Position numbers and translations under genes: made by a program | Source: an uncultured Candidatus Saccharibacteria bacterium | Lineage (GTDB): Bacteria; Patescibacteriota; Minisyncoccia; Phycocordibacterales; Phycocordibacteraceae | Length of the DNA stretch: 48,069 nt | Direction: 5' to 3' | Assembly: GCA_964415875.1 (NCBI GenBank) | Contig: CAYQCB010000001.1 | Coordinates: forward strand, 1 to 48,069 | The notes under the pieces: model-generated | The model's database searches: none | What the model saw: only the letters and a program-made list of their open reading frames with translations | What the model was told of the DNA's origin: nothing | Shown: positions 2,274 through 19,942 of the stretch, piece by piece | Layout: each line of letters starts with the position of its first letter | Numbering within the stretch: position 1 is the first letter of the stretch

Positions 2274-2704
2274 TTAGTAAGAGACTCACTCTTCGAGAGC
2301 CGATATGACTTTATATACCTCCAGACGACCAAGACAAAGGTAACTACGGAGAATACCTGCCCCGCAAGTTCTGCAGCATTCACTCGATAAAACGGAAAAG
2401 GGTCGAGAAAGGTGCCGGGCGCCTGCATAACGGGAGTTAGCACAATGAACAGAACTGCGATTATTGTGTAATATGGCACAAATCTCAGCCAAGAACGGAA
2501 TATCGACTCCTTGACGAAAAGAGTGAGCAGAACTGCCGGCCAGGCATACAAAAAGAAGTAGTAAACTGGCTGAGTAAATGGTTCATGGAAGCGATCGATC
2601 CATGTGCCATAACAGGTACGATTCGTAATTATGCACCAATAACTTACAGGAGCGGAAATCAGCCCTAAAAATGTAAGCACTACTGACGCTATCTTAGTGT
2701 TCAT
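2270..2704 (-). CDS. small membrane protein (about 4 TM), paralogue of 1257-2273
   Basis: 144-aa hydrophobic ORF with the shared FPFYR..AAE motif. Overlaps the stop of the upstream lipase gene by 11 nt. Confidence 0.6.
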   Translation of the reverse strand: MNTKIASVVLTFLGLISAPVSYWCIITNRTCYGTWIDRFHEPFTQPVYYFFLYAWPAVLLTLFVKESIFRSWLRFVPYYTIIAVLFIVLTPVMQAPGTFLDPFPFYRVNAAELAGQVFSVVTFVLVVWRYIKSYRLSKSESLTK

Positions 2705-5700
2705 AATTTTGAGTAACGAGCAATTTTAATTCTTCAAGCATAGCAGTAATTTCTTGGGCTTCTTGAGGAGATACAGTGTTTTGTGGGGCACGGGCTTGCC
2801 AACGGCTCGGCATTTTTGAGGTGATTGAGAGATACTTTTCGAGCGCCTCGATCTGAAACACAATTGTACGGGCGAGTATTTTTTCAATCCCAACAGAGAT
2901 CTTTTTCCGCAAACCCTTCAGAGCACTATCCCGCGTAGACATTGTATCTATGAGCGCGAGATTTCTATTAATTCCTTTCAACTGCGTATCTAGCTGCCGT
3001 TGCATGTTCTTTGATAAGCTAAGCGTTACAACGGCTTTCTCCATATAGGAGATATAGTCTGTGGCTGATACGGCTTCTGTAAATTGCGTCGTCGTACCCA
3101 CACTTGGCTTAATGGCGAAGTCTGCACTACCGTCGCCATTTTCGTCCACCGACAACGCTGAAGCGTCGGCTATGCCGTTTGAAATAGTTAAGTGTACCGT
3201 GGTGCTGGTCGAAACAGGCACATCTGCAATAGTTGCTGTGGCCACGAGTGTCCCCCCAAGAGACTCCTCAATGTCGAGTGAGAACATGCCTGAGGCCAGT
3301 CCACTTAAGTTCAACTGGTATTGACTGCCTGCTGGAGCAATCAGATACTGCACCTCTCCAAACTGGCCGTACTGCGCACCAGGAATGTTTTCTGTAACAG
3401 TGCTGCTTGCGGACAAGCCTGTCGTTTCGCCTTCAGCGTTACTCAACTGAAGAGTGAGTGGAGAGTGGAGGATGAATATGAGTTTTTTATCTTGGGTCAG
3501 GGGAGTAGGAGAGCTTGTCGATATTCCGAATGGTAGGGCATTTTGAGTTGACCCAAGCAAACTGGCAATTAAATCTCCGAGTTGGGTTACTCCAAAAATA
3601 TTTGCATGTGATATTTTAGATTTTTGCGCTTTGTTTATTGAATGTAAATCGACCCAAAACCGTTTTACATTTGTACTGCTCGCCATAGCGAGGGCGCTCG
3701 GCACCGGAACAGTACCATCCCCGTCCTCCGTGAAAATTGGTATATATGAGCGCGGTTGTTCCTCAAACGCCACTGCTGGACCTGCAGCAGACTTGGTTCC
3801 GTACATGGTGTAGAAATCTATTCCGGCCACAGTGTCTATTCCCCACCCTGCAATTTGGTCAACCTCAATACCCGTTGGAGGCACCCAGCGGTCGAGTGTA
3901 TTGTGAATGGTGTTTGCATATTGCACGAGCGCTGAATTTGCGATTTCTGGATCTTTCAAGTCACTCGCCTCAGGGTCTGCTCGCGACGCCAGCGTCCCCA
4001 AAAGAAAATTATCAAACGTATCTCTATCTATTATAGAATTCCCATATGCAGCCTCTTCAGCAGCATAGGCCGGCCCCGAGAAATGCACCACGGGGTGGGT
4101 CGGCTCAGTAATAATCGAGGTGAAGTAGTCCACCGACGGCAACAAGTGATAGGCCATCGGAGAGTTCTGTGCGAGTGCTCTCGCGGCAGCATTTGAAACA
4201 ACACCAATACCGTAATCATAAATGCCGGCATTGTAACCAAGCAGAAGACTGCCAACGGCTGCAGGCGCGCCAGTTTGCGGTACGGCAACCATGATCACGC
4301 GGTCTACCAAAGTAGCGGCCTGGTTGCCAAGGCGTGCGAGCAACGCCTTGGCAACCAGGCCGCCATTTGAGTGCGCAATGATGGTCACCTTCCCTGTTTT
4401 CGAACTGGCAGCCAAACGCCGCAGCATTTGTTCAATATACGGCGTGTCAGTGGCCGTCGCATAGTTAATGTTGCCATTCGTCTCTGCGCCCCTCGTAAGC
4501 AAATCGTTCAGTGACAGCCGCCAGTCATACGCCGCAGGGGACCAATCGTTTATGGTGCCCGCCGCTTTGAGCGATTGCATTTGATCAATAACTGGCTGAT
4601 ATATGGCGCCACCAGCCGAGTCAATAATGTCGCCGTCCTTTGCGTAGATGTCCGAGCATTCGCTTTTACCAGACGTGGTAAGTGCTAATTTAGCAACCTT
4701 TGAGTCGCCCGCACCAAAGACCACTCCCCAAAAACCAGAATACGGCTCCCACAACTTCTCTTCAGCAGTGCCACCACACGCCGTCCCCTCATACAACCGA
4801 CTGCCCTCAATGCCCGGTAGAAAAAGCACGTTGTCAGTGCACGCTCCAGGCACCGCACAGGGATCTGGCACCGATGGGTCCACCGTGAGCCATGGAGTGT
4901 ACGTAACAGCCCCCTCTATGCCATTTCCGCTTCCAGCCACATTCGCTAGCGTGTCATGCGGCCCCGAGGCACTGCCCCACCAATCATCTCGAGCATCGAT
5001 AGCGGTACTCGCGTCATTTAATACGCCGAGATCTGTATTGTCGTGAATGCTTGAATCGTGTACCACGACTGAGTCATGGCCTTCCGAATACATGCCCGTT
5101 GCATTGTGATCGATTTCACTGTGTGCAACCAAAAGAGAACCTCCTCTCATATAGATGCCGTCGTCTGTGTTATTAAAAATGTGCGTGTTGTGCAACGTAA
5201 GCATCCCTCCAGCAACCGTTATACCGACTTCGTGATTTGAGACCTGCGAATCAGAAAGCGTGGTAGTACCAGACCACTGGCCAAAACCGTCATATGCATT
5301 GTGCGTGAAGGTCATGTGCGAAAGCATCAGCACTCCTCCAGCATTTGCTATTCCTGTACGAGGAACAGGTGTGATATACCCGCCACCATAGCGAACAGTC
5401 GCGTACGAGACCGTACCACTTGAGCCTGGCTCAAATTCCACATGCATCCATTGTCCGTCGGTTGGCGTACTACTTGCCTCTCCACTGGTAAGGCCACCAA
5501 CAGAATCATCCTCTGTCGACGTGAAAAAGATGGGACTATCTGCTGTCCCCTCTGCCACAAGCGCTCCATACACCAGCATTCCGTTTTCTTTCCCAAATTT
5601 CACCACAACGCCAGGATCAATATGGAGCGATGCACCAGCCAACACACTGAACAAAGTCACGCCATTGTAAGTCCGCGGCATTTCTACAACGTACGGACTC

Positions 5701-5855
5701 TCGGAAAGTGTCCAGTGAGTGTCAGTAGCAATATTACTTGTGACCGCCGTTGCCGCACGCGCGGACACGGGGAAACCGCAGCATCCGACAATTGCCAAGA
5801 CTGCAGTGAGCCCTATTCGTCTGGGCATGCGCAAGCGCATGGCGAGCCCCTTCAT
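2694..5855 (-). CDS. secreted parallel beta-helix protein fused to an LCAT/lipase-type alpha/beta hydrolase, with a C-terminal coiled coil
   Basis: Signal peptide RIGLTAVLAIVGCCGFPVSARA. The start is probably the MKGL Met at 5855; the ORF is open to 5918. PbH1-like repeats (HNTHIFNNTDDGIYM, HSEIDHNATGMY, HDSSIHDNTDLGV) end in DDWWG. Then YDWR and the nucleophile elbow IIAHSNGG. Confidence 0.8.
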   Translation of the reverse strand: MKGLAMRLRMPRRIGLTAVLAIVGCCGFPVSARAATAVTSNIATDTHWTLSESPYVVEMPRTYNGVTLFSVLAGASLHIDPGVVVKFGKENGMLVYGALVAEGTADSPIFFTSTEDDSVGGLTSGEASSTPTDGQWMHVEFEPGSSGTVSYATVRYGGGYITPVPRTGIANAGGVLMLSHMTFTHNAYDGFGQWSGTTTLSDSQVSNHEVGITVAGGMLTLHNTHIFNNTDDGIYMRGGSLLVAHSEIDHNATGMYSEGHDSVVVHDSSIHDNTDLGVLNDASTAIDARDDWWGSASGPHDTLANVAGSGNGIEGAVTYTPWLTVDPSVPDPCAVPGACTDNVLFLPGIEGSRLYEGTACGGTAEEKLWEPYSGFWGVVFGAGDSKVAKLALTTSGKSECSDIYAKDGDIIDSAGGAIYQPVIDQMQSLKAAGTINDWSPAAYDWRLSLNDLLTRGAETNGNINYATATDTPYIEQMLRRLAASSKTGKVTIIAHSNGGLVAKALLARLGNQAATLVDRVIMVAVPQTGAPAAVGSLLLGYNAGIYDYGIGVVSNAAARALAQNSPMAYHLLPSVDYFTSIITEPTHPVVHFSGPAYAAEEAAYGNSIIDRDTFDNFLLGTLASRADPEASDLKDPEIANSALVQYANTIHNTLDRWVPPTGIEVDQIAGWGIDTVAGIDFYTMYGTKSAAGPAVAFEEQPRSYIPIFTEDGDGTVPVPSALAMASSTNVKRFWVDLHSINKAQKSKISHANIFGVTQLGDLIASLLGSTQNALPFGISTSSPTPLTQDKKLIFILHSPLTLQLSNAEGETTGLSASSTVTENIPGAQYGQFGEVQYLIAPAGSQYQLNLSGLASGMFSLDIEESLGGTLVATATIADVPVSTSTTVHLTISNGIADASALSVDENGDGSADFAIKPSVGTTTQFTEAVSATDYISYMEKAVVTLSLSKNMQRQLDTQLKGINRNLALIDTMSTRDSALKGLRKKISVGIEKILARTIVFQIEALEKYLSITSKMPSRWQARAPQNTVSPQEAQEITAMLEELKLLVTQNYEH

Positions 5856-6023
5856 ATTTTTACCGTAACATATGAAATACGTGCGCAAGTCACCGGGTGT
5901 GGAAAGATGCGAAACCAAAACAGGACACTCCTTTTACTTACGGCTTCACAAGTTTACCCACACACCCTCTCCCTGTGCACAGAGCGTGGCACTGCGTAGC
6001 CTCAAGAGGGTACACTGTACGCA

Positions 6024-11625: not shown

Positions 11626-12072
11626 ATGGAATCGAACACAAAAAAGAATTACGTTATTATTACCGTTATTTCTCTCGTCGTGGGTGTGGGCCTAGGTTAC
11701 GGAGGTGCTCACCTTTTGAACAAGCCCGCCGCACCCGGGGCGGGTGCGGCGTTTGCCCGCAGCGGCAACACGGCGGGCTTCATGGCACGCATGGGCGCAG
11801 GCACTGGCGCCGCCGGCAGCGGTTTCCTCTCGGGGACGGTCGCGAAGATGGACAGTTCAAGCATCACTCTCAACACGCGAGACGGCAGCTCGCACGTTGT
11901 CTTGCTCACGCCTTCCACCACCGTTTCTAAGAGTGTTACTGGCTCGCTCGCTGATGTTGCTGTAGGCAGCAACGTTCTCATAACGGGCACTACAAACTCG
12001 GACGGCAGTCTCTCCGGGTCTGTCATTCAACTCCAAAACGGCATGCGTGCCGGAGCTTCGCTGCCTAACTAG
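11626..12072 (+). CDS. small membrane-anchored / secreted protein
   Basis: 148 aa. N-terminal TM helix and Gly/Ala-rich linker, then a beta-rich region (SGTVAKMDSSSITLNTRDGSSHVVLL...SGSVIQLQ). Lies 36 nt after the permease gene. Confidence 0.5.
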   Translation: MESNTKKNYVIITVISLVVGVGLGYGGAHLLNKPAAPGAGAAFARSGNTAGFMARMGAGTGAAGSGFLSGTVAKMDSSSITLNTRDGSSHVVLLTPSTTVSKSVTGSLADVAVGSNVLITGTTNSDGSLSGSVIQLQNGMRAGASLPN

Positions 12073-12125
12073 ACAAGAAAAAAGCTCTAGGTTATAAAGA
12101 CTTCAGATATTATAAGGAGCACTTG

Positions 12126-12362
12126 ATGAGCAATTGCCAATTGTGCGGCACAAAAGTCGCCCAAGGTAACCGACATCGCCGCGGCGGATGCGCCACACGG
12201 GCACCGCTTGTGTGCCATAAGCCCTACATCCCCAACACGGATCCTACGGAAATTCTCGATCCCCGGGGGCAACCCGTTCCCGAGCTTGGCCTTCACAGTA
12301 AGAAAAGGAAGCAGCAAAAGCAGAAACCGCAACGCGGGCATCACTCCGCACCAAGACACTGA
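12126..12362 (+). CDS. small basic Cys-containing protein (hypothetical)
   Basis: AAGGAG sits 6 nt upstream of the ATG. 78 aa with a CxxC and a KKRKQQKQK tract. A strong intrinsic terminator follows directly. Confidence 0.4.
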   Translation: MSNCQLCGTKVAQGNRHRRGGCATRAPLVCHKPYIPNTDPTEILDPRGQPVPELGLHSKKRKQQKQKPQRGHHSAPRH

Positions 12363-12370
12363 GCGCAGCC

Positions 12371-12409
12371 ACGCCGTTCGGACACCAGTCCGAACGGCGT
12401 ACGTTTTTA
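12371..12409 (+). terminator. intrinsic terminator
   Basis: ACGCCGTTCGGAC-acca-GTCCGAACGGCGT (13-bp stem) followed by ACGTTTTTA. Confidence 0.75.
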
Positions 12410-12416
12410 TACAAAT

Positions 12417-12451
12417 GCCAAAAGGGCCGACGCGCTGCGTGCGTCGGCCCT
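12417..12451 (-). terminator. intrinsic terminator of a minus-strand transcript
   Basis: Minus strand reads AGGGCCGACGC-acgcagc-GCGTCGGCCCT followed by TTTTGG. Confidence 0.7.
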
Positions 12452-12726
12452 TACGAATGTCCAGACATGTTTGCTGATGGGTGACCCAACCCGGATCGCT
12501 GGCGGCGGTGTTTCTCCCCCGGCAGATAAGCTCTCCCAAATTAAGCGTGAGTTACGCACCGACGGCGCGTTCAGAAAGCGTGAGCTTTTTTCAGCAAACC
12601 GGAATGTCCGAGCAGTGCTTGTGCACTGTCTAAAGCTTCGGTGAGTGGGTGGGCCCACTGCTTTTTGACCTTAGCTGTTAGCACGGGCTCCCCAGCCCAG
12701 GACGACCGCGAACGGTCTTCACTCCT
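12452..12726 (-). ncRNA. candidate structured non-coding RNA of unknown family
   Basis: Bounded by a TTGACG-16-TATTGT promoter and the terminator at 12417-12451. No credible ORF. Local hairpins include GACCG-UUCG-CGGUC, CAGUGC-acaa-GCACUG and AGUGGG-ccca-CCCACU. Confidence 0.3.
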
Positions 12727-12731
12727 CTTTC

Positions 12732-12759
12732 ACAATAGATTCGTTTTTTGCTGCGTCAA
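12732..12759 (-). promoter_or_regulatory. putative sigma70-type promoter
   Basis: On the minus strand: TTGACG (12759-12754), a 16-nt spacer, then TATTGT (12737-12732). Confidence 0.4.
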
Positions 12760-12811
12760 CCACATGCGTGGGGACATTGCAGCTCTTTTTATTTTTGCTA
12801 TGCTTTACGTA

Positions 12812-12904
12812 ATGAAACGCGCATTCGCCATCATCATCGTCGTCCTGCTTGCGCTCAGCATGATAGGACTCGTCTTCCCTGCTCTCATGGCAGGAAATAT
12901 CTAA
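12812..12904 (+). CDS. possible 30-aa hydrophobic peptide
   Basis: MKRAFAIIIVVLLALSMIGLVFPALMAGNI forms a single TM helix. No clear SD. Followed by the terminator at 12922-12953. Confidence 0.2.
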   Translation: MKRAFAIIIVVLLALSMIGLVFPALMAGNI

Positions 12905-12921
12905 CTCCCGTCTTCCGCACC

Positions 12922-12953
12922 AAAAAACTCACCCCTTTGGGGGTGAGTTTTTT
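12922..12953. terminator. bidirectional intrinsic terminator
   Basis: AAAAAACTCACCCC-tttg-GGGGTGAGTTTTTT, with A/T runs on both sides. Sits 8 nt past the stop of the minus-strand operon. Confidence 0.8.
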
Positions 12954-12960
12954 GCGTTAC

Positions 12961-14334
12961 TCAAAAACGTCGCCTTAGATAAAAGCCGAGCGCCGCAAAT
13001 ACCACTGCAAGAACGATAAATGGTAGGACGTCACACATGCGCCCAAATACGAGACTTGCCCCCACGCCCACCACACTTGCCGCTACATAAAAAATGCTAC
13101 GACGAACTTCCCGCGCTCGAGGTGCCTCATACGCAACTCCTCGTCGCAAGTACTCGTAGAGGAGTTCTGCAAGCGCGGCTAGTACACAAAAGAGTATGAA
13201 GAACCAAACACAGGGGTTTTTGAGCCACGTAAAAGGTCCGGCGAGAGCCGCAGCTGCCGCGAGTTGATTGCCAGTAACGTGCGGTGCGTCCACCGTTGTC
13301 TGAGACGTGCTCGATGTACCCGTTTCTCCGCCCGAAGGAGACGTTGAGAATCCTGCAGTGCCCGTTCCTGAGGAGTGCGTCCCTGCTACTTGTAGACTAC
13401 CTGCGCCGGGCGCGGGAGCTCCTAGAGACTGCTCAGTGGCCGCAGTGAGCTCCCCCGGCAGAGCGAGTTGGTACTCACTACCAACTGTAGGCACTCCAGA
13501 GGGAGAGAGCTTTGACACCACGCGGAAGTCGTAGACTGTTCCGGGCACAAGCCCAGAAATGACCACGCGGTGCGCTGTAGTTAGCGATGCATCCTCGGTT
13601 GATTGATTAGGATACCCAAACAAAGGCCCCGCAGTGCTGAGTGTATATGGTCCACCAGAGCGCGCTCCGTACACTACGTAGGACGTGGCTGGTAAGTTAG
13701 TGCTCCAGGTAACCACTCCTGTCGTATCGGAGCGCGACGCGCCCGACTCGTTAAATACGGTAAGTGTTGGAGAAATAGAGCCGCCCGTAGAAAATGACGC
13801 CAACGTTGTATTGCCTGGAACCGTCGGTACCGTTACCGTGTTATCACATTGAACATCGCCGTCTCCAATTCCCACGCACAAATCAAAACCAACTGATTTG
13901 CCTTGATACGTGTTACTGGCGCCCGGATCAAAGGTCACGCTTGCATCGTACGCAGCCGTTGCACCGGGCACTACGCTGGTGAGCGGCACCCGCGAAGCGC
14001 TGAAGAAGTGTGCGAGCGTATCACTGTATAGAACAGTCGAGCCGCTTTGAATCGTCAGTATCAACATTGAAGCAAGTACGCTACTGTTTGTGTTTTCTGC
14101 TTGCACATATACCTGCTCGGAGTCGGTGGGAGAGTAATTATTCGTAACGGAAATGAGGCTCGTGGCTGTTGCACCAGGCGCAAATTGTAGTTGAGAAAAA
14201 AGTGGATTTGGGGCGAAGTTCACATCAAAACCCACACCCGCAGCGTGCGAGAGCGTCGGGCCGCACAGCAGTGTGAGTGCGAGGACGCTCGTGGTGGCAG
14301 CTACCAATGTAAATACGTTTCGTTTCATATTCAT
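12961..14334 (-). CDS. TasA/camelysin-fold paralogue with an FN3-like domain and a C-terminal 3-TM anchor
   Basis: Sec signal ending SHA/AG. APGATATSLISVTNN and NTYQGKSVGFDLCVG resemble the TasA core motifs. FN3-like VTWSTNLPATSYVVYG...GTVYDFRVVS. Ser/Thr/Gly linker followed by three hydrophobic helices. ATGA overlap with the upstream gene. Confidence 0.65.
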   Translation of the reverse strand: MNMKRNVFTLVAATTSVLALTLLCGPTLSHAAGVGFDVNFAPNPLFSQLQFAPGATATSLISVTNNYSPTDSEQVYVQAENTNSSVLASMLILTIQSGSTVLYSDTLAHFFSASRVPLTSVVPGATAAYDASVTFDPGASNTYQGKSVGFDLCVGIGDGDVQCDNTVTVPTVPGNTTLASFSTGGSISPTLTVFNESGASRSDTTGVVTWSTNLPATSYVVYGARSGGPYTLSTAGPLFGYPNQSTEDASLTTAHRVVISGLVPGTVYDFRVVSKLSPSGVPTVGSEYQLALPGELTAATEQSLGAPAPGAGSLQVAGTHSSGTGTAGFSTSPSGGETGTSSTSQTTVDAPHVTGNQLAAAAALAGPFTWLKNPCVWFFILFCVLAALAELLYEYLRRGVAYEAPRAREVRRSIFYVAASVVGVGASLVFGRMCDVLPFIVLAVVFAALGFYLRRRF

Positions 14335-15737
14335 GGAGTAGTACTGGCCGCCGCGGCCGCAGAAACAGGCGTCGAGTTCTCCGTCGGCGGCAGCACTACA
14401 GCGTCAGCAATTACTGGCATTGGGGGTGGAGCGTCGGCTGGTGGCGCACTCGAGCTTTCCTGCGTCCCTGGTGTTGAGCTTTGAGACTGACTGAGCGTTT
14501 GTGGTGCTACGGACTCTGTACTCGAAGCGTCGGCAGGCGCTTCAGGCACGCTTGGTGTACTCGAGGGCGCACCCTCTACTGTTTTCGTCTCTACGACTAC
14601 AGGCGTGGTACTGGCCGCGTCCGGCGCGCCACCCGCATCTTCGGACGATGTTGCTGCCACTGTCGTGCTAGCAAGCGGCTCCACAACAGTATCGTTTTGA
14701 GGAATTTCAGTTGACGCAGCTTCCGGTGGTAGCGGGGCATCGACGTTTGGCCGACCAGGAGTTGGCACGGGGTCAACCCACGAACCCGTTCCGTCTGGAA
14801 TTCGCTGATAAGAATCCCCTTCCGTTGACGACGTATAGGTAAACTCGTCGCGAAGGACTCCCGCACTGTCATACAGTCGGATCGTGTCCCCGTCGTTGTT
14901 CAGGTACGTTTTGCTCCCGCCAAAAACAAACGCTACAGGTGTGTTGGGCGCGAGCAACGTCGTACCACCATAGGGCTCTAATTCGCCCGTCGCCGCTACG
15001 GAACTCACGATGACGTGCGATTTCTCGGTAGTGCCAGAGACTTCAGACACCGTCCACCCCGCGACGTCGACTGGTACACCAGAGGTATTAAATAATTCAA
15101 TAAACTCTTGATTAGCGGGCGCGGGAGCCGAGGAGTCTGGGCGTGGCAGAACTTCGTTGAGTACAACCGTGCGCCCCAAGTGCCCGCTCGCCTGCACCGT
15201 GAGTGGGATGCTGATTTCTTTTGCGAAGCCACCCTCGCTCGACGCAGCAAAGCCTGGCTGCCACGCCTCCATCTGCAGCTCTATGTCACAGGTGTCTCCC
15301 GGTAGCGCAATAGCGGAGCCAGCGGAGATGGCGAAACTCCATGACCCCGTAGTGCTTGTGGTCGCCACCAGGCTCTGCATACTTCCGCTGTATACCGAAC
15401 TACCCATCACGACAGACACCGAGAGACCGTTATAGAACGCCGGCGAACACACGCCTTTCTGTGCAGTAAGGCGGTACTGCGGTGCAATCGTACCTGTAGA
15501 CGAGATGGTAAACGCAGCGGTTCCGTTAGTACTCGATGAGACGCTGGTCGTCAATGCTGAAAAACCCTTGCGCGCAATGTTAAGCGACCCGGCCGTGAGC
15601 GTCCCACCACTTGCGTCTGCTGCACCACTAAAGTATGCGTGCGCAGAAAGGGGTATGCCTGCACTTACCAACAACAATGGTGCCACAACGGCGCCAAGCA
15701 TCCATGAGAAGCGACTATGCGTTTGCGCGGTATTCAT
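14331..15737 (-). CDS. TasA/camelysin-fold protein fused to a lamin-tail domain and a Pro/Ser/Thr/Ala-rich tail
   Basis: SipW-class N-terminus AYFSGAADASGGTLTAGSLNI. LTD-like block VVLNEVLPRPD...EFIELFNTSGVPVDVAGWTV...NNDGDTIRLYD. Low-complexity C-terminus. Confidence 0.7.
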   Translation of the reverse strand: MNTAQTHSRFSWMLGAVVAPLLLVSAGIPLSAHAYFSGAADASGGTLTAGSLNIARKGFSALTTSVSSSTNGTAAFTISSTGTIAPQYRLTAQKGVCSPAFYNGLSVSVVMGSSVYSGSMQSLVATTSTTGSWSFAISAGSAIALPGDTCDIELQMEAWQPGFAASSEGGFAKEISIPLTVQASGHLGRTVVLNEVLPRPDSSAPAPANQEFIELFNTSGVPVDVAGWTVSEVSGTTEKSHVIVSSVAATGELEPYGGTTLLAPNTPVAFVFGGSKTYLNNDGDTIRLYDSAGVLRDEFTYTSSTEGDSYQRIPDGTGSWVDPVPTPGRPNVDAPLPPEAASTEIPQNDTVVEPLASTTVAATSSEDAGGAPDAASTTPVVVETKTVEGAPSSTPSVPEAPADASSTESVAPQTLSQSQSSTPGTQESSSAPPADAPPPMPVIADAVVLPPTENSTPVSAAAAASTTP

Positions 15738-16249
15738 GGCAGCGGTGTTGACGCACTCGCGAGCACCTTACTCCTACGACGACGCAGTACGTCTTCTCCT
15801 ATTACCCACGCAAGCGGTACTCCCACCAAAAGCGCGAAACCCGCGGGACGCCGCGCAAAATCGAGTACGTACCCAAGGTACGGCACCGAAAGCCACACTG
15901 CGCCCAGCACTTCGCTTTGCGCTACCGGTAACAGGTCGGGTGCGTCGTTGGCATCGCCGCGCGTCGTGTAGTAGATCTCCCCTGCTTGAATAGAGTCAGC
16001 GACAATGCGGTGCGTGGTCGGGATTTTCTCGCCACTGCGCTCAAACGTAATGACCTCACCTACAGAGTAGTGCGTACGTGCCTTCACAAACACCGCCGTG
16101 CCGACCGGCATGGTGGGTGTCATTGAACCCGTGGTAACGAGACGAATTTGATAGCCCGCAAACGGCACCACACTACCCGCAAGCAGAAGCGCCAGCGCCG
16201 CAAATGCGACGATTAGTAGTGTGGAAATTATGGCCGTAATTTTTTTCAT
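15734..16249 (-). CDS. sipW: signal peptidase I, archaeal/ER (SipW) type
   Basis: 171 aa. TM helix, then catalytic-Ser box TTGSMTPTMPVG, His box TTHRIV, GDAN box and a C-terminal TM helix. Confidence 0.8.
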   Translation of the reverse strand: MKKITAIISTLLIVAFAALALLLAGSVVPFAGYQIRLVTTGSMTPTMPVGTAVFVKARTHYSVGEVITFERSGEKIPTTHRIVADSIQAGEIYYTTRGDANDAPDLLPVAQSEVLGAVWLSVPYLGYVLDFARRPAGFALLVGVPLAWVIGEDVLRRRRSKVLASASTPLP

Positions 16250-16279
16250 TGCTCTAATTCATAGCCTTAGCGGCTTAGT

Positions 16280-16309
16280 ACTGAATCCAAGCCACTGCTT
16301 GGATTCAGT
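16280..16309 (-). promoter_or_regulatory. intra-operon stem-loop after the first TasA-like gene
   Basis: ACTGAATCCAAGC-4 nt-GCTTGGATTCAGT, a perfect 13-bp stem with no T-run, in the 82-nt gap before sipW. Confidence 0.5.
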
Positions 16310-16331
16310 GTAAACCGTCAAACCGAGACGT

Positions 16332-17915
16332 TTACTGCTGACCGAGTGTAAAGGTCAGCGTTGTCGTGAGACCTGCACCCTGGAACGAGTTGCCCGTGGT
16401 TGGGCCATCAAGCTGCACACCCAGCGTGAGCTTCTTTTCTGCACCTGCTGCGAAACTTATCGGAGCGTTCACTAGCGGTGTAAGCCGCAAGTCCTGCATG
16501 TCTGCATAGCCGTTGTGGTTTTGGTCAATACCGTTAACCAAGCCTGCAACAGGCCCGCCGAGGAAGCCTACCGTGTTGACGTTGGCTGAAACCTGATCTG
16601 CTGGGTTCATGTCACCCCACCAGTTGTTCTGGCCGTTGACGTCGATACCGGTGTTGTTATTGATCCCAATTGCAACATTAGGCGTGAGATTGTTTTGATT
16701 AATGGTTATGTTTGCTGCGCTTGTATTTGGTTGTTCAACCTGAACACCCACCGCGTCCCCCGATCCTGAAGTTAGGTCGTGCACATCGTTAAGCGTTACA
16801 GAAGCGTTGGGCGTGTTGCCCTCAAGTGCAATGGCGTGTGCCCACCCACCAGAGAGATTGTTCACGGAGTTGTGTGTGACAATGAGGCCACTCACTCCTG
16901 GTCGGCCCGTAGCACCAGCTCCTGCGTTGACCATAATGCCGTACGCACCCTTAAGCGACTTCACGTTAGTAACAATGTTGTTACTAACGTTCACGGTCGT
17001 GATAGCCCCAGTAGCTGCGGAGTCTCCTGCGTAGATACCTTGGTTCGAGCCGTTATTGGCTGCATTTCCGATATTCTCAATGACGTTACCTGAAAAGGTA
17101 AAGTTAAACATTGCGGTTGAGTCGCCCTCAAGGTAGATCCCCTGGTGATTAAGATTATCAGTAAGCGAGGTGGCAATGTCATGGATGTGATTATCCTTTA
17201 TTGAGACATCGTGTACACCGCTATGAATTACAATACCTTCAGCGGCCGACGCTCCAGAGATACCGAATCCACGGAGAGTCACGTTACTAGCAGTGATGTC
17301 AAACGGAACGCTTGTCGTAACTGCTGGGCCCTGTGTCGAGACAATCGTCATTGGTTGCGTGACGGGAATTGTAGGCATACTCTCCCAGGTTGCGTTGTAA
17401 TCGCCAGGGGCCACACAAACTACCTTGCCGCTATTGTTTGTATCCTGCGTTGCGGTACTAAGCTTCGTACCTGAGACAGTTATGTCACAGTGCGTTGGTG
17501 CCACATAGTCGGCAATCGTCGCGCCTGCGCCACCCTGAAGAAGGTTCGAGCCATCGAGCGTGAGTGAGGTGATGCGCACCTGTTTCTCGTAGCCGCTTAC
17601 AGACTCAGTGCTGGCGGCACTGATTCCCAAGTGCATGCCATCAATACTTCCTGTGTTCTTGAGCCACACACTCGCTACGCTAGGCGCACCACCTGGTGCC
17701 ATCGCGGAGAAATTCCACGGTGCCGACTGTGACGTCTCCCAGCCATTGACAGCGGTACCATTCGAATCTTTAGCAATGGCGAGGTTGAGTGTGCCCGCCG
17801 TAAACACGTTTGCTTGTGCGCTTGCTGTCGACGTGAAGAATGCGCCAGTCGTTGCCGCATAGGTTGCACCTACGAACGCCAGTGCTCCAAAACCCAGTAA
17901 TAGATACTGTTTCAT
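16332..17915 (-). CDS. TasA/camelysin-fold protein with a large nested parallel beta-helix domain
   Basis: Start at MKQYLLLGFG. SipW-class motif TGAFFTSTASAQANVFTAGTLNLA. MAPGGAPSVASVWLKNTGS. PbH1 repeats (VSIKDNHIHD, FSGNVIENIG, VSNNIVTNV, VTHNSVNNL) ending NNWWG. C-terminal NSFQGAGLTTTLTFTLGQQ resembles the TasA C-terminal strands. Confidence 0.75.
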   Translation of the reverse strand: MKQYLLLGFGALAFVGATYAATTGAFFTSTASAQANVFTAGTLNLAIAKDSNGTAVNGWETSQSAPWNFSAMAPGGAPSVASVWLKNTGSIDGMHLGISAASTESVSGYEKQVRITSLTLDGSNLLQGGAGATIADYVAPTHCDITVSGTKLSTATQDTNNSGKVVCVAPGDYNATWESMPTIPVTQPMTIVSTQGPAVTTSVPFDITASNVTLRGFGISGASAAEGIVIHSGVHDVSIKDNHIHDIATSLTDNLNHQGIYLEGDSTAMFNFTFSGNVIENIGNAANNGSNQGIYAGDSAATGAITTVNVSNNIVTNVKSLKGAYGIMVNAGAGATGRPGVSGLIVTHNSVNNLSGGWAHAIALEGNTPNASVTLNDVHDLTSGSGDAVGVQVEQPNTSAANITINQNNLTPNVAIGINNNTGIDVNGQNNWWGDMNPADQVSANVNTVGFLGGPVAGLVNGIDQNHNGYADMQDLRLTPLVNAPISFAAGAEKKLTLGVQLDGPTTGNSFQGAGLTTTLTFTLGQQ

Positions 17916-18158
17916 AATGCGAGGATTATTATTTTGCCCCTTAGTAAGCCACAATTCCGTACACACCGTTTGTGCTCACAGAACCTAGAGAGAAGTGTAC
18001 GCCTGCATTTCGCAAGTGCAACGCGGGGTGTGGATAGCGGCATTTGCGTTTTTGCTCTTAATGTAGTATCGTTTTCTCACTCGCAGAGTATTAGAGCTTC
18101 AGACCGTCACGGTCGCAGGTATTCAGTTTCGGCGAGGTTAATCAGTTAGATCCATCAC

Positions 18159-18551
18159 ATGGACGAAGAAAACAAGCAAGCAGCAACCGGAGTACCGTCA
18201 GCAGTACAGGGCAACAAGCTCTATGTTGGCGGCATCCCGTACCGCTCGACGGAAGACGATCTGAAGAAGGCCTTTGAAGAGGCTGGCGCAGTTGTCTCCG
18301 CAAGCATTATCAGCGATCGCATGACGGGCCGCTCACGCGGTTTCGGTTTCGTCGAGATGGCCTCTGAAGCAGAGGCTCAGGCGGCAATCGACCGTTGGGA
18401 CGGTAAGGACCTCGATGGGCGCACGCTCTCGGTCTCCTTCGCACGCCCACAGGGTGATCGCCCTCCTCGCCGTGAAGGCGGTTTCGGAGGCGGTGATCGT
18501 GGAAACGATCGCGGTGGTTTCGGCGGCGGCTACGGCCGCGGCGGTTACTAA
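18159..18551 (+). CDS. RRM-type RNA-binding protein with an RGG/Gly-rich tail
   Basis: RNP2 LYVGGI and RNP1 RGFGFVEM. Tail GGFGGGDRGNDRGGFGGGYGRGGY. Confidence 0.85.
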   Translation: MDEENKQAATGVPSAVQGNKLYVGGIPYRSTEDDLKKAFEEAGAVVSASIISDRMTGRSRGFGFVEMASEAEAQAAIDRWDGKDLDGRTLSVSFARPQGDRPPRREGGFGGGDRGNDRGGFGGGYGRGGY

Positions 18552-19192: not shown

Positions 19193-19942
19193 ATGCGCCA
19201 CGTGCTCATGCTTATCGCCGCTACGCTTGTTGTGCTGTGTCTTTCTCTTCCTGTAACGGCAGACGAGACGCGAAAAGTTGACGTATCGCTTGTGCTCGCC
19301 ATTGACGTGTCGAGCAGCATTTCTGAAGGACGTTGGAATCTGCAGATGAGCGGTTACGCACAGGCGTTTATGGACGCCAAGATTGCAGAGCTCGTTGCGA
19401 CTGGAGTGTATGGCGCAATCGATGTCACTGCCTTTGTCTGGGCGGGGTGCTCTTCACAAAAAACGATCATTGGTTGGACGACGATTACCGACAGCGCTTC
19501 AGCCAAGGCCTTTGCCAAAAAATTTAGCGGTGTGCGACGGCCGTTTGATGGAAACACCTGCCCTGCTGCAGCGCTCGCTTTTGCGGGAGAGCAATTTGCT
19601 TCGGCGCCACACAGAGCATTAAAACTGGTCACTGACATCTCTGGCGACGGCGGGTCGGACGTGGACTACCACTGCAATGGACGCGTCGTCTCAACTGCTG
19701 AGGTGCGCGACCAGCTTGTGGCTCGGGACGTTACCGTAAACGGGCTTGCATTAATCGTTCCGAACGACATTGAGCTGGCCTCGGGCAGCAGAGACTCAGT
19801 CCCGGTAGTGCAGTTCTACCGCGAAGAAATCATAGGCGGCCGGGGCGCTTTTCTGGAAGTTGTTCTGGACGCCGACAGCCAAAGTGATTTTGTAGCAGCA
19901 CTTCGCAAAAAGCTCGCCAAAGAACTGCTCGCGAGCCGATGA
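19193..19942 (+). CDS. secreted von Willebrand factor A-like protein (DUF1194-like)
   Basis: Signal peptide. MIDAS-like LAIDVSSSIS. GDG block TDISGDGG...VNGLAL. Confidence 0.6.
   Translation: MRHVLMLIAATLVVLCLSLPVTADETRKVDVSLVLAIDVSSSISEGRWNLQMSGYAQAFMDAKIAELVATGVYGAIDVTAFVWAGCSSQKTIIGWTTITDSASAKAFAKKFSGVRRPFDGNTCPAAALAFAGEQFASAPHRALKLVTDISGDGGSDVDYHCNGRVVSTAEVRDQLVARDVTVNGLALIVPNDIELASGSRDSVPVVQFYREEIIGGRGAFLEVVLDADSQSDFVAALRKKLAKELLASR

Follow-up and report, generated by a model that had tools for sequence, protein, structure and literature searches.

Four adjacent genes on the minus strand of the window, the whole 48,069-nucleotide stretch of DNA analyzed here, combine a signal peptidase with three exported proteins and raise the question of what these proteins make at the cell surface. 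Our analyses indicate that the operon most likely builds a membrane-anchored surface fiber from relatives of TasA, a Bacillus biofilm protein. The tight linkage described in the initial annotation, with two ATGA overlaps, an 82-nt gap and a bidirectional terminator, is present in the sequence.

A conserved four-gene operon

12961-17966, minus strand: operon of four genes
16332-17915, minus strand: gene 1 (P1), 527 aa from the ATG at 17915; the GTG ORF (16332-17966) extends to 17966
16280-16309, minus strand: perfect 13-bp intercistronic hairpin, within the 82-nt spacer 3' of gene 1
15734-16249, minus strand: gene 2, 171 aa, archaeal/ER-type (S26B, SipW-class) signal peptidase I
14331-15737, minus strand: gene 3 (P3), 468 aa
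12961-14334, minus strand: gene 4 (P4), 457 aa
12922-12953, unstranded: bidirectional intrinsic terminator (A6, 8-bp GC-rich stem, T6) at the end of the operon

Genes 1 and 2 are separated by 82 nt (16250-16331), both overlap junctions (15734-15737 and 14331-14334) read ATGA on the minus strand, and the signal peptidase gene is translationally coupled to the genes for three exported proteins. The terminator is a symmetric hairpin, A6-CTCACCCC-TTTG-GGGGTGAG-T6 (dG -25.6 kcal/mol, flanks included). The 82-nt spacer also folds strongly (dG -33.1, z = -4.9), and a strong hairpin of unrelated sequence follows gene 1 at the equivalent position in 13 of the 17 loci examined, the window counted. Its probable function is that of a partial terminator or mRNA-stabilizing element lifting gene-1 dosage.

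A survey of gene neighborhoods in related genomes recovered the same order (fiber subunit, peptidase, lamin-tail protein, anchor) in a further 12 distinct loci, which represent at least eight patescibacterial lineages, including Saccharibacteria, Doudna-, Kaiser-, Nealson-, Moranii-, Pacei- and Parcubacteria. Because this order is kept at gene-1 identities down to 27-30% and with differing flanking genes, the grouping is more than chance. Several loci carry two to three tandem P1 paralogues upstream, and minimal cassettes whose P1 lacks the beta-helix described below still keep the peptidase, P3 and P4. PF12389/TasA homologues in Patescibacteria have already been noted in a survey, whose passages considered here give no account of their operons (PMC9245690); the present architecture appears to be undescribed so far.

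The assignment of gene 2 as an archaeal-type signal peptidase I is upheld by its match to TIGR02228 (91.7 bits, cutoff 51.85). The Ser/His catalytic pair is intact, Ser42 (16124-16126), His80 (16010-16012) and Asp99 (15953-15955) being all invariant, and the GSM.PT, TTHR and GDAN boxes are unchanged in five of five cassette orthologues. Transmembrane (TM) segments lie at its N-terminus (residues 1-35) and C-terminus (137-155). The quoted motifs were all located: the peptidase has GSMTPT, TTHRI and GDAN, gene 1 has FTAGTLNL and gene 3 has LTAGSLNI. We are confident that the operon is a SipW/TasA-type export cassette.

P1, a predicted TasA-type subunit split by a beta-helix

17841-17915, minus strand: signal peptide, residues 18-42 of the GTG ORF
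17781-17840, minus strand: predicted donor strand and SipW-cognate motif, FFTSTASAQANVFTAGTLNL, residues 43-62
17517-17780, minus strand: jelly-roll, N-terminal half (residues 63-150), which contains the PGG...VWLKNTGSIDG motif
16572-17516, minus strand: inserted right-handed parallel beta-helix, residues ~151-465 (~315 aa), CASH/NosD-like
16491-16526, minus strand: EF-hand/dockerin-like loop, D481-Q-N-H-N-G-Y-A-D-M-Q-D492, where the helix returns to the jelly-roll
16335-16571, minus strand: jelly-roll, C-terminal half (residues 466-544), with GNSFQGAGLTTTLTFTLGQQ at its end

All four ORFs exist at the annotated coordinates, but translation of gene 1 almost certainly starts from the ATG at 17915, which is residue 18 of its GTG ORF, because homologues begin there with MKK... 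The encoded P1 is predicted to be the major fiber subunit, a TasA/camelysin-type jelly-roll interrupted by the beta-helix. Cleavage probably occurs at T40-G-A42/F43-F44: all 27 homologues keep T40 and A42, at least 90% of them have F44, and the distance from there to GTLxL resembles that in TasA (TWA/AF). Residues 43-62 align with TasA residues 28-47, AFNDIKSKDATFASGTLDL, a region that begins with the 11-residue TasA donor strand (residues 28-38; PMC9674648). In the AlphaFold2 monomer model (pLDDT 85, pTM 0.81) this segment has a pLDDT below 50, as expected since a donor segment is unpaired in a monomer. The model places strands at residues 62-68, 71-77, 96-104, 110-121 and 130-137 in the N-terminal half and at 498-505, 510-519 and 533-542 in the C-terminal half, which aligns with the C-terminal half of helix-free relatives and with TasA 185-205, NKYQGNSIKLQFSFEATQ.

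In profile searches P1, P3 and P4 themselves stay below threshold for PF12389, the peptidase M73/TasA family, and for TIGR04088. However, PF12389 is matched by 22 of the 27 gene-1 homologues and 4 of 16 P3 homologues, and TIGR04088 by 23 of the 27 gene-1 homologues. These matches bear out the SipW-cognate N-terminal motif reported for the products of genes 1 and 3. The homologues include a protein annotated as [quoted passage not shown]. In helix-excised P1 homologues, PF12389 matches the N-terminal half up to position 107 of 196. A helix-free 197-aa relative (locus L040) matches PF12389 over 2-192 of 196 (E 7.5e-13). The P1 core HMM is matched in both of its halves by this relative (E 5.5e-26 for the full sequence) and also by the helix-free L032 relative (E 8e-28); because helix-free relatives match both models, they tie P1 to full-length PF12389. 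The P1-core profile is moreover collinear with genuine TasA (8AUR), with a score reached by none of 3000 shuffles. These sequence comparisons support P1 as a true TasA/camelysin-family protein with a beta-helix insertion. TasA was never among the matches of the PDB profile searches. It was likewise absent from full-length Foldseek searches, where P1 retrieved only beta-helix enzymes and tailspikes and P4 only FN3 tandems, because these domains dominated the matches. The jelly-roll assignment therefore relies on profile comparisons rather than on a domain-level structure match.

The name of PF12389, "Camelysin metallo-endopeptidase" (Peptidase_M73), could suggest a metalloprotease operon. We regard this as highly improbable, given that HExxH is absent from all four proteins, that the M73 protease assignment of CalY is considered a likely misidentification (PMC11580942) and that TasA is a structural fiber protein (PMC9674648).

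The beta-helix proposed for gene 1 is apparent both in the AlphaFold2 model (pLDDT mostly >90) and in Foldseek. It interrupts the loop that joins the "LTLDG" strand to the EF-hand-like loop, and has two invariant cysteines (C160 and C184) and an NWWG cap at its C-terminal end. Its best structural matches are alginate lyase 6kfn (TM-score 0.67, target-normalized), PL6 alginate lyases, GH87 glucanase, pectin-active enzymes and phage tailspike depolymerases, and the profile search adds a match to pectate lyase 7xks; it may be a carbohydrate-binding, or possibly glycan-cleaving, module. From the same matches, and from five charged helix positions conserved at 75% or more (K309, E382, D394, E411 and D452), it could be argued that P1 is mainly a polysaccharide lyase or hydrolase, secreted or on the surface, with a SipW-type signal, depolymerizing host cell wall, capsule or EPS, and that P3 and P4 are unrelated surface proteins served by the same peptidase. 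This seems quite unlikely to us: no charged residue of the helix is invariant across the 27 homologues, and the window P1 has Q at site 309, the best-conserved basic position. The TasA-type core also occurs without the helix in the minimal cassettes, which places the conserved function in the core system rather than in the helix, and an enzymatic helix carried on a fiber would fit our preferred fiber model.

In the loop that follows the helix, D481, N485, A488 and D489 are invariant and N483, G486 and D492 at least 90% conserved among the 27 homologues, and helix-free relatives of 195-197 aa keep it as NGFADLDDL. Its D-x-N-x-N-G-x-x-D-x-x-D pattern suggests calcium binding.

P3, a predicted initiator or tip

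Residues 1-34, minus strand: signal peptide, A32-H-A34/Y35-F36
15576-15635, minus strand: donor-strand motif, YFSGAADASGGTLTAGSLNI
15183-15575, minus strand: beta-rich N-domain, ~130 aa
14745-15173, minus strand: lamin-tail domain, PF00932
14334-14744, minus strand: Ser/Thr/Pro/Ala-rich tail

The lamin-tail domain attributed to gene 3 is clear (PF00932, 54.3 bits, cutoff 34.3, E 2e-14), and a sequence scan found neither a TM segment nor LPxTG in P3, for which 30 homologues were recovered. P1 and P3 both have a SipW-cognate signal in which P1'/P2' is aromatic (T-G-A/FF and A-H-A/YF), and both carry the TasA-like motif of the N-terminal strand, which lies 15 residues upstream of G-(T/S)-L-N-(L/I); outside this motif, pairwise BLAST of P1, P3 and P4 shows no paralogy. 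The hhalign comparison of P3 with the P1 family (94-96%) covers the donor strand and first strands only. TasA scores 13.8 bits against P3, a value reached by none of 3000 shuffles, and only the first ~75 residues of mature P3 align convincingly with the TasA-like core. In minimal cassettes (L032, Gottesmanbacteria, and L040) P3 is reduced to signal, donor motif and lamin-tail domain, and elsewhere peptidase and P3 are fused in a single ORF (L033, L034, P0049 and P0056), which ties the enzyme to its substrate. We predict that P3 is an initiator or tip akin to TapA, whose donated N-terminal strand extends from an Ig-like domain that is itself complete (PMC10151520).

P4, a predicted acceptor-only membrane anchor

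Residues 1-31, minus strand: ordinary signal peptide, S-H-A/A-G
13840-14241, minus strand: TasA-like beta-sandwich lacking a donor strand, residues 32-165
13459-13767, minus strand: FN3/purple-acid-phosphatase-N domain, PF16656
13240-13458, minus strand: disordered linker
12964-13239, minus strand: three TM helices

P4 belongs to a large family (129 representatives at E<=1e-30), and its FN3 domain (PF16656, 31.8 bits, cutoff 30) and three C-terminal TM helices agree with the initial description; N-domain, FN3 and TM regions are confident in the AlphaFold2 model. The N-domain aligns with the P1-type core along 109 collinear columns, from the PG motif to the N.YQG motif (hhalign 92%, E 6.9e-7), and TasA reaches 8.9 bits, equaled by one of 3000 shuffles. 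The distance from cleavage site to PG motif has a median of 20 residues in P4, versus 34 in TasA and 48 in P1, making the mature N-terminus 14 residues shorter than that of TasA and 28 shorter than that of P1. The P4 N-domain is thus homologous to the P1 core but without the donor segment, and we predict that P4 is an acceptor-only anchor tethered by FN3 and the disordered linker to the membrane helices. Of the three TasA-fold paralogues initially proposed, two (P1 and P4) are therefore established and the third is suggested, since P3 aligns only at its N-terminus and the quoted core motifs are not evident in it.

A model for fiber assembly

On balance, we favor the operon as a dedicated secretion-and-assembly module for a TasA-type surface fiber held by donor-strand exchange; the sequences tip us slightly toward polymerization of the cassette products. 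After Sec export, the peptidase would free P1 and P3, uncovering their N-terminal donor strands. P3 would act like TapA, its strand filling the groove of the first P1 and freeing that subunit's own donor strand, which would put the lamin-tail domain at the distal end. P1 subunits would then link up head to tail as a shaft, a beta-helix jutting from each, until the donor strand of the last P1 is caught by P4. Since P4 would accept a strand but could not donate one, it would both terminate the fiber and anchor it in the cytoplasmic membrane, and the conserved hairpin would let the shaft subunit be expressed more strongly than the products of the three genes downstream. Membrane anchoring has a precedent in the BsaA oligomers of Clostridium perfringens (sipW-bsaA-bsaB-bsaC operon; PMC11580942). 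The polarity itself, with P3 as tip, P1 as shaft and P4 as anchor, is tentative, and the simple capping scheme would need amending if the ~130-aa N-domain of the window P3 has its own open groove.

The same domain logic, with P4 accepting and P1 or P3 donating strands, would also suit a stoichiometric complex that does not polymerize, in which P4 captures the strand of a single P1 or P3 and displays one beta-helix or lamin-tail module per anchor as a surface lectin or adhesin. The 315-aa lateral helix on each subunit might sterically impede TasA-like packing, and the TasA-like paralogue BsaB of C. perfringens does not assemble beyond monomers or dimers (PMC11580942). We nevertheless find this rather unlikely, because P1 still combines a donor strand with a complete acceptor domain, the pairing that polymerizes TasA (PMC9674648), the conserved hairpin suggests an excess of P1 over P4, and the tandem P1 paralogues are as expected of shaft variants. 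In an ultra-small, probably episymbiotic bacterium, the fiber would likely serve adhesion to a host cell, polysaccharide or eDNA, and could plausibly be a tool for host attachment.

Comparison with known systems

The parallel with tapA-sipW-tasA of Bacillus subtilis (PDB 8AUR, 5OF1) drawn in the initial annotation is apt for the system as a whole, although its distribution of anchor, peptidase and subunit needs revision: the TapA analogue would be P3, with a donor strand and a separate Ig-like domain, and P4 an acceptor-only anchor. In both systems an archaeal/ER-type signal peptidase is encoded beside its own substrates, which carry SipW-cognate signals with an aromatic residue soon after the cleavage site. 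The major subunit of each is a jelly-roll of the PF12389 type, in which F..(S/A)GTL(D/N)L is the N-terminal donor-strand motif, PG...N.G marks one strand and N.(Y/F)QG another at the C-terminal end. An accessory gives (TapA) or would give (P3) an N-terminal strand that extends from a separate Ig-like domain. By contrast, the order here is subunit, peptidase, accessory and anchor, so that the major subunit leads the operon instead of closing it; the ~315-aa beta-helix occupies the loop where TasA has a helical excursion; the accessory has a lamin-tail domain instead of the TapA fold, and no TapA/TIGR04087 sequence match was found; the peptidase falls below the SipW equivalog cutoff (92 vs 190 bits); the organism is a monoderm-like CPR bacterium; and the sequence likeness to TasA is detectable with profiles only. 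To our knowledge, the tapA-sipW-tasA operon has no counterpart of a TasA-like acceptor with FN3 and three TM helices but without a donor strand, and we met no acceptor-only membrane-anchored component in a non-systematic survey of its literature.

The C. perfringens sipW-bsaA-bsaB-bsaC operon similarly has four genes, SipW, more than one TasA-like paralogue, an adhesion-domain protein and a polymer anchored in the cytoplasmic membrane without LPxTG (PMC11580942). It differs in having the peptidase gene first, a vWA adhesion protein whose secretion is aided by type IV pilus genes, and BsaA stabilized by intermolecular isopeptide bonds; it lacks the beta-helix insertion and the lamin-tail domain, and a TM-anchored TasA-like acceptor is not described there (PMC11580942). 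Archaeal bundling pili (AbpA/AbpB of Pyrobaculum calidifontis) and other archaeal TasA-like filaments share the TasA-superfamily jelly-roll and polymerization by donor-strand complementation, with a larger accessory proposed as a filament starter bearing distal adhesin-like domains (PMC9245690); the ABP operon has no dedicated peptidase, and neither an inserted beta-helix nor a lamin-tail domain is present. Chaperone-usher pili (Pap/Fim) show no homology, have a different cell envelope and rely on an usher and periplasmic chaperone that have no equivalent here, where the proposed anchor is an integral membrane protein. They are alike in logic only, as donor-strand-exchange polymers that begin with a tip, extend through a repeating shaft and end growth with a terminator, the role that we give to P4.

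Organization and genomic context of the operon

As the initial annotation had proposed, four linked genes with two overlaps occupy the minus strand between positions 12961 and 17966. Both overlapping junctions read ATGA on the coding strand, the sole spacer is indeed the 82-nt interval 16250-16331, and the claimed shared bidirectional terminator at 12922-12953 is a symmetric A6-stem-loop-T6 structure (dG -25.6 kcal/mol).

Features of the operon (genes taken from the ORF listing)
16332-17966, minus strand: gene 1, product P1, predicted TasA-family protein with a beta-helix insert
16280-16309, minus strand: intercistronic hairpin after gene 1, perfect stem, with counterparts in other loci
15734-16249, minus strand: gene 2, signal peptidase
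14331-15737, minus strand: gene 3, product P3, protein with a lamin-tail domain (LTD)
12961-14334, minus strand: gene 4, product P4, predicted TasA-like protein with a fibronectin-type (FN3) domain and transmembrane (TM) helices

The GTG extension of gene 1 is probably untranslated, since its homologues begin at an internal ATG (17915, residue 18). Scanned for consensus promoters, the region upstream of gene 1 yielded nothing convincing as a sigma-70 site, so that we claim no promoter for the operon. Of the 17 loci examined, window included, 13 carry a strong hairpin 3' of the P1 gene (the window and loci L001-L007, L010-L012, L014 and L023). These hairpins have perfect stems of 10-15 bp, unrelated sequences and, mostly, no T-run. 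The element may act as a partial terminator or an RNA-stabilising structure setting subunit stoichiometry, and it fits a dosage device favouring the putative shaft subunit, P1.

The window is chromosomal and also contains rpoB, rpoC, dnaG, rpoD, hisS, smc and a MacB/HlyD transporter. Between a 148-aa gene (11626-12072) and the operon terminator, the ~890 nt at 12073-12960 form an unusually long gap for a compact genome, holding no ORF with a family match and several strong hairpins without Rfam match (e.g. a 13-bp stem at 12371-12400). Rfam searches of the window and of the gene-poor region 12000-13000 gave nothing credible. A glycine-rich RRM RNA-binding protein (18159-18551) is encoded divergently upstream of the operon, followed by a DUF1194 protein with a signal peptide (19193-19942). 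Elsewhere, a 1074-aa protein (2694-5918, minus strand), a further candidate secreted or surface effector, has both an LCAT-like alpha/beta-hydrolase (lipase/acyltransferase) domain and a right-handed beta-helix (PF13229/NosD).

A signal peptidase of the SipW class

Gene 2 had been recognized as coding for an archaeal-type signal peptidase I, and its product scores 91.7 bits on the corresponding model TIGR02228 (archaeal/ER-type, S26B), well beyond the curated cutoff of 51.85. The Ser/His pair, on whose presence this assignment had been made to depend beforehand, is intact: S42 (GSM.PT), H80 (TTHR), D99 (GDAN) and D105 are invariant in all five sequences compared (window and four orthologues from equivalent operons). 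We take the GSM.PT, THR and GDAN boxes to be those that hold the SipW catalytic residues (Ser/His, not Ser/Lys). Hydrophobic segments lie at both termini. On the SipW equivalog model NF046067 the protein reaches 92.1 bits, below the 190-bit cutoff; it is of the same class as Bacillus SipW, not its orthologue.

In two other loci, L033:10451-12019 (Saccharibacteria) and L034:10163-11653, the peptidase and a P3-like substrate are joined in a single ORF, which implies self-processing. The substrate part comprises a second hydrophobic segment, the SipW-cognate motif, the N-domain and sometimes an LTD. Two database proteins, P0049 and P0056, likewise join an LTD with an S26 peptidase.

P1, a TasA-type core interrupted by a beta-helix

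The TasA-like core proposed for P1 is supported by its family, whereas P1 itself remains below the thresholds of both relevant models. Direct Pfam and NCBIfam scans of P1, P3 and P4 gave no match to the TasA family: PF12389 did not match full P1 (cutoff 22.5 bits), the helix-excised core reached 12.2 bits (E 0.16), and TIGR04088 fell below reporting thresholds on the P1 and P3 sequences. PDB sequence and profile searches with P1, P3, P4 and their alignments never returned TasA, the Bacillus biofilm fibre protein; their matches were beta-helix enzymes, FN3 domains and noise. We found 28 homologues of P1, one of them named [quoted passage not shown]. In the alignment of 27 sequences, window protein included, PF12389 matches 22 (best E 7e-7) and TIGR04088 matches 23. 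These PF12389 matches are confined to the first 48-107 of 196 profile positions (positions 4-107 in helix-excised homologues). The decisive link comes from helix-free relatives of 195-197 aa, encoded in a Gottesmanbacteria MAG (L032) and in L040: for the L040 protein, the PF12389 match extends from position 2 to position 192 of 196 (49.2 bits, E 7.5e-13), and the L032 and L040 proteins match both halves of the helix-excised P1-core profile (E 8e-28 and 5.5e-26), which places the beta-helix as an insertion between the "...LTLDG" strand and the "NGYADLQDL" loop. These profile matches place P1 in the TasA family, by a homology that is transitive, via its own family, and with a beta-helix inserted in its core.

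When TasA (a sequence identical to 8AUR chain A) was compared with the P1-core profile, the score was 12.5 bits, from TasA 6-89 and 186-205 in collinear order, a value reached by 0 of 3000 composition-preserving shuffles. This calibrated HMM test and the transitive link through the helix-free relatives supersede hhalign comparisons with the single TasA sequence, which were weak (probabilities 2-23%). The AlphaFold2 model of P1 (27 sequences; pLDDT 85, pTM 0.81) places five core strands before the beta-helix and three after it, which may form a jelly-roll beta-sandwich comparable to those of 5OF1 and 8AUR; residues 1-55, comprising the signal peptide and the presumed donor strand, are unstructured, and the donor-like segment has low confidence in the monomer. 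Foldseek on the full-length model retrieved only beta-helix enzymes and tailspikes, the accessory domain dominating the search. The nearest relatives of P1 (66-67% identity) are found in Candidatus Paceibacteria MAGs.

Residues 481-492 of P1 (D-Q-N-H-N-G-Y-A-D-M-Q-D; 16491-16526) show an EF-hand/dockerin-type calcium-loop pattern, nearly invariant in the family. Since the helix-free relatives of 195-197 aa retain it as NGFADLDDL, this loop is part of the TasA-like core, not of the insert.

The insert itself (residues ~162-440, pLDDT mostly >90) is modelled as a right-handed parallel beta-helix, whose Foldseek matches include the alginate lyase 6kfn (TM-score 0.67, target-normalised), 7c7d and PL6 enzymes; PF13229 and NosD match some P1 homologues. 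These resemblances would suit an enzyme, as would five helix positions that are 75-89% conserved. Across the 27 aligned sequences, though, every D, E, K, R and H position of the helix varies, and the best-conserved basic site, position 309, is K in 23 of 27 homologues and Q in the window protein. Given this lack of fixed charged residues and the Q at 309, we favour binding over catalysis, an enzyme being the possible alternative.

P3, a lamin-tail protein with a SipW-type signal

P3 carries a PF00932 lamin-tail domain (residues 189-302; 54.3 bits against a cutoff of 34.3, E 2e-14), which is matched in 16/16 aligned homologues. Once mature, it begins with YFSGAADASGGTLTAGSLNI, which is in register with FFTSTASAQANVFTAGTLNL of P1, and between the inferred cleavage site (T-G-A|F in P1, A-H-A|Y in P3) and the G of G(T/S)LN each protein has 15 residues. 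With PF12389 matching the N-terminal region in 4 of 16 P3 homologues, the TIGR04088 matches of the P1 family, motifs in register and the peptidase gene adjacent, the SipW-cognate signal ascribed to genes 1 and 3 holds. TasA is reported to have Phe at P2' and to be cut by its dedicated SipW and inefficiently by LepB (PMC10269814); in P1 and P3 the aromatics lie at P1'/P2'.

Beyond this motif, the likeness of P3 to TasA is more limited. Pairwise BLAST among P1, P3 and P4 matched only the P1/P3 N-terminal motif (E 0.015). P3 aligns with the P1-family profile at 94-96% probability over the donor strand and first strands (~75 mature residues), and its N-domain (residues 55-185, ~130 residues) has a weak likeness to that of P4 (42-69%). 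TasA scores 13.8 bits on the P3 N-domain profile, reached by 0/3000 shuffles, in an alignment covering TasA 6-59 only. Because these alignments cover only the donor strand and first strands, a TasA fold of the P3 N-domain is suggested, not established. The C-terminal 137 residues are of low-complexity Ser/Thr/Pro/Ala composition, and P3 has neither a TM segment nor LPxTG. None of the four operon proteins matches TapA or TIGR04087, and for P3 we propose functional analogy with TapA only. The interpretation given in the initial annotation was thus largely right, although it overstated the case for gene 3 and was imprecise about which gene takes the TapA role.

Two further readings were rejected, a metalloprotease for lack of HExxH and a sortase pilus for lack of LPxTG.

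P4, a predicted membrane-anchored relative with a short N-terminus

A word-indexed homologue search with P4 returned only the self-match; exhaustive HMMER retrieved 1945 representatives at E<=1e-3, 129 of them at E<=1e-30. The AlphaFold2 model (60 sequences) shows a confident beta-sandwich (36-163) and an FN3-like domain (193-291), followed by a disordered linker and three TM helices (374-456). FN3 tandems dominate Foldseek results for the whole chain. By hhalign, the N-domain (144-sequence alignment) and the TasA-like profile of the CPR proteins share 109 aligned columns, which begin at the PG...N strand and end at the N.YQG...F.L strand (92% probability, E 6.9e-7). TasA scores 8.9 bits on the N-domain profile in two collinear pieces, a score reached by 1 of 3000 shuffles, and a direct PF12389 scan matches one of 60 family members (E 0.017). 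Judged by these profile alignments, the P4 N-domain is homologous to the TasA-family core.

The A-x-A cleavage site of the P4 family is conserved, with A31 present in 59/60 members, and lies a median of 20 residues from the PG proline, as compared with 34 in mature TasA and 48 in P1. Since the P4 N-terminus is this short and the donor strand of TasA consists of its first 11 residues (PMC9674648), P4 appears to be an acceptor sandwich without a donor strand.

Each of the three proteins has one extracellular cysteine pair (P1 160/184, P3 97/150, P4 153/163), probably forming a disulfide; among these, C160 and C184 (P1) and C150 (P3) do not vary within their respective families, and the P4 pair lies within the conserved ...DLCVGF.GG...C.

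A cassette conserved across Patescibacteria

We compared loci reached through gene 1 homologues (four) with others from a scan in which a single genome represented each GTDB species, using HMMs of the four families. The order P1-like protein, peptidase, LTD protein and P4-like protein on one strand recurs in 12 other distinct loci, labelled Saccharibacteria (2), Doudnabacteria, Kaiserbacteria, Paceibacterota, Nealsonbacteria (complete genome CP179888.1), Moraniibacteriota, Parcubacteria, "Patescibacteria group", one unclassified MAG and two metagenome contigs; four more loci keep this order as far as the contig end. As the flanking genes differ between loci, the cassette is a conserved unit. 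Full-length P1 homologues were found in Patescibacteria only, bar that unclassified MAG, matches in other phyla being restricted to the beta-helix.

The cassette also varies in composition. Its minimal versions, L032:5947-8450 (the Gottesmanbacteria MAG) and L040:6025-8129, have a TasA-sized P1 devoid of beta-helix and a P3 that comprises no more than signal, donor motif and LTD. RTX calcium-binding repeats are present in the P4-like protein of L032, and the label Gammaproteobacteria attached to L040 may reflect a binning error. Five other loci (L012:3149-7602, L033:5959-10444, L034:3681-10028, L023 and L056) have 2-3 tandem P1-like paralogues before the peptidase gene, which suggests interchangeable or mixed shaft subunits.

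A putative donor-strand fibre and its relation to known systems

TasA polymerises by strand donation: every subunit inserts its N-terminal strand into the sandwich of the following one, which is thereby completed (PMC9674648). TapA starts this process with its own N-terminal strand, donated by an Ig-like domain that is itself complete beforehand (PMC9674648, PMC10151520). The elements observed here are a peptidase of the SipW class, its cognate signals, a TasA-type core in P1, a donor-less homologue of that core in P4, and synteny. Read against this literature, they can be mapped onto a fibre. P3 would be the strand-donating initiator, and its LTD would therefore end up distal. P1 would form the self-propagating shaft, displaying one beta-helix per subunit, and P4 would take the last free donor strand, thereby terminating the fibre and tying it to the membrane. 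In such a P3-P1-P4 arrangement all grooves would be filled and no donor strand would remain free. We regard the cassette as a genuine, conserved system that hints at a mechanism; its assembly into a fibre, the polarity of that fibre and its biological role are offered as proposals. Taking all parts together, we tentatively envisage, as a reading that we find possible rather than probable, that a type of surface pilus of their own is widespread among Patescibacteria: a TasA-type donor-strand fibre independent of sortases, ushers and type IV machinery, started by an LTD tip that donates a strand, ended and held in the membrane by an acceptor-only TasA-like integral membrane protein and, in many lineages, with beta-helix bristles providing one carbohydrate-binding or -cleaving unit per subunit.

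How ultra-small CPR bacteria attach to and exploit their hosts is a central question. The cassette, compact, strongly syntenic and widespread in the phylum, is a second candidate appendage with a clear, testable role for each gene, and, if our reading is true, the fibre could be a principal organelle by which episymbionts attach to, or attack, the host surface. The TasA core would, moreover, be able to carry a functional insert of 300 residues. Saccharibacteria include cultivated, genetically tractable strains, and experiments look feasible, as the cassette occurs in Saccharibacteria-labelled MAGs (L002/L009, L018). Among the publications that we retrieved, the functionally studied CPR surface appendage is the type IV pilus (e.g. 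PMC11623550, PMC10633639).

PF12389 homologues in Patescibacteria have already been recorded, in a one-line remark of a survey (PMC9245690), the only pairing of SipW/TasA with CPR taxa that we found; NCBI and JGI also label some P1 homologues as SipW-signal proteins. A full-text search, covering part of the journals, returned no account of the operon, a helix-inserted TasA, an LTD strand-donor or a TM-anchored acceptor-only TasA-like protein. The closest systems are the tapA-sipW-tasA operon of B. subtilis, whose TapA (YqxM) has no recognized homologue in the window operon, the C. perfringens sipW-bsaA-bsaB-bsaC locus, whose polymer is membrane-anchored (PMC11580942), and the archaeal bundling pili (PMC9245690). 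In the studies of TasA (PMC9674648) and BsaA (PMC11580942), attachment to the membrane or cell wall is not ascribed to a TM-anchored TasA-like subunit; an acceptor-only P4 anchor, as proposed here, would supply an explicit solution for both termination and anchoring.
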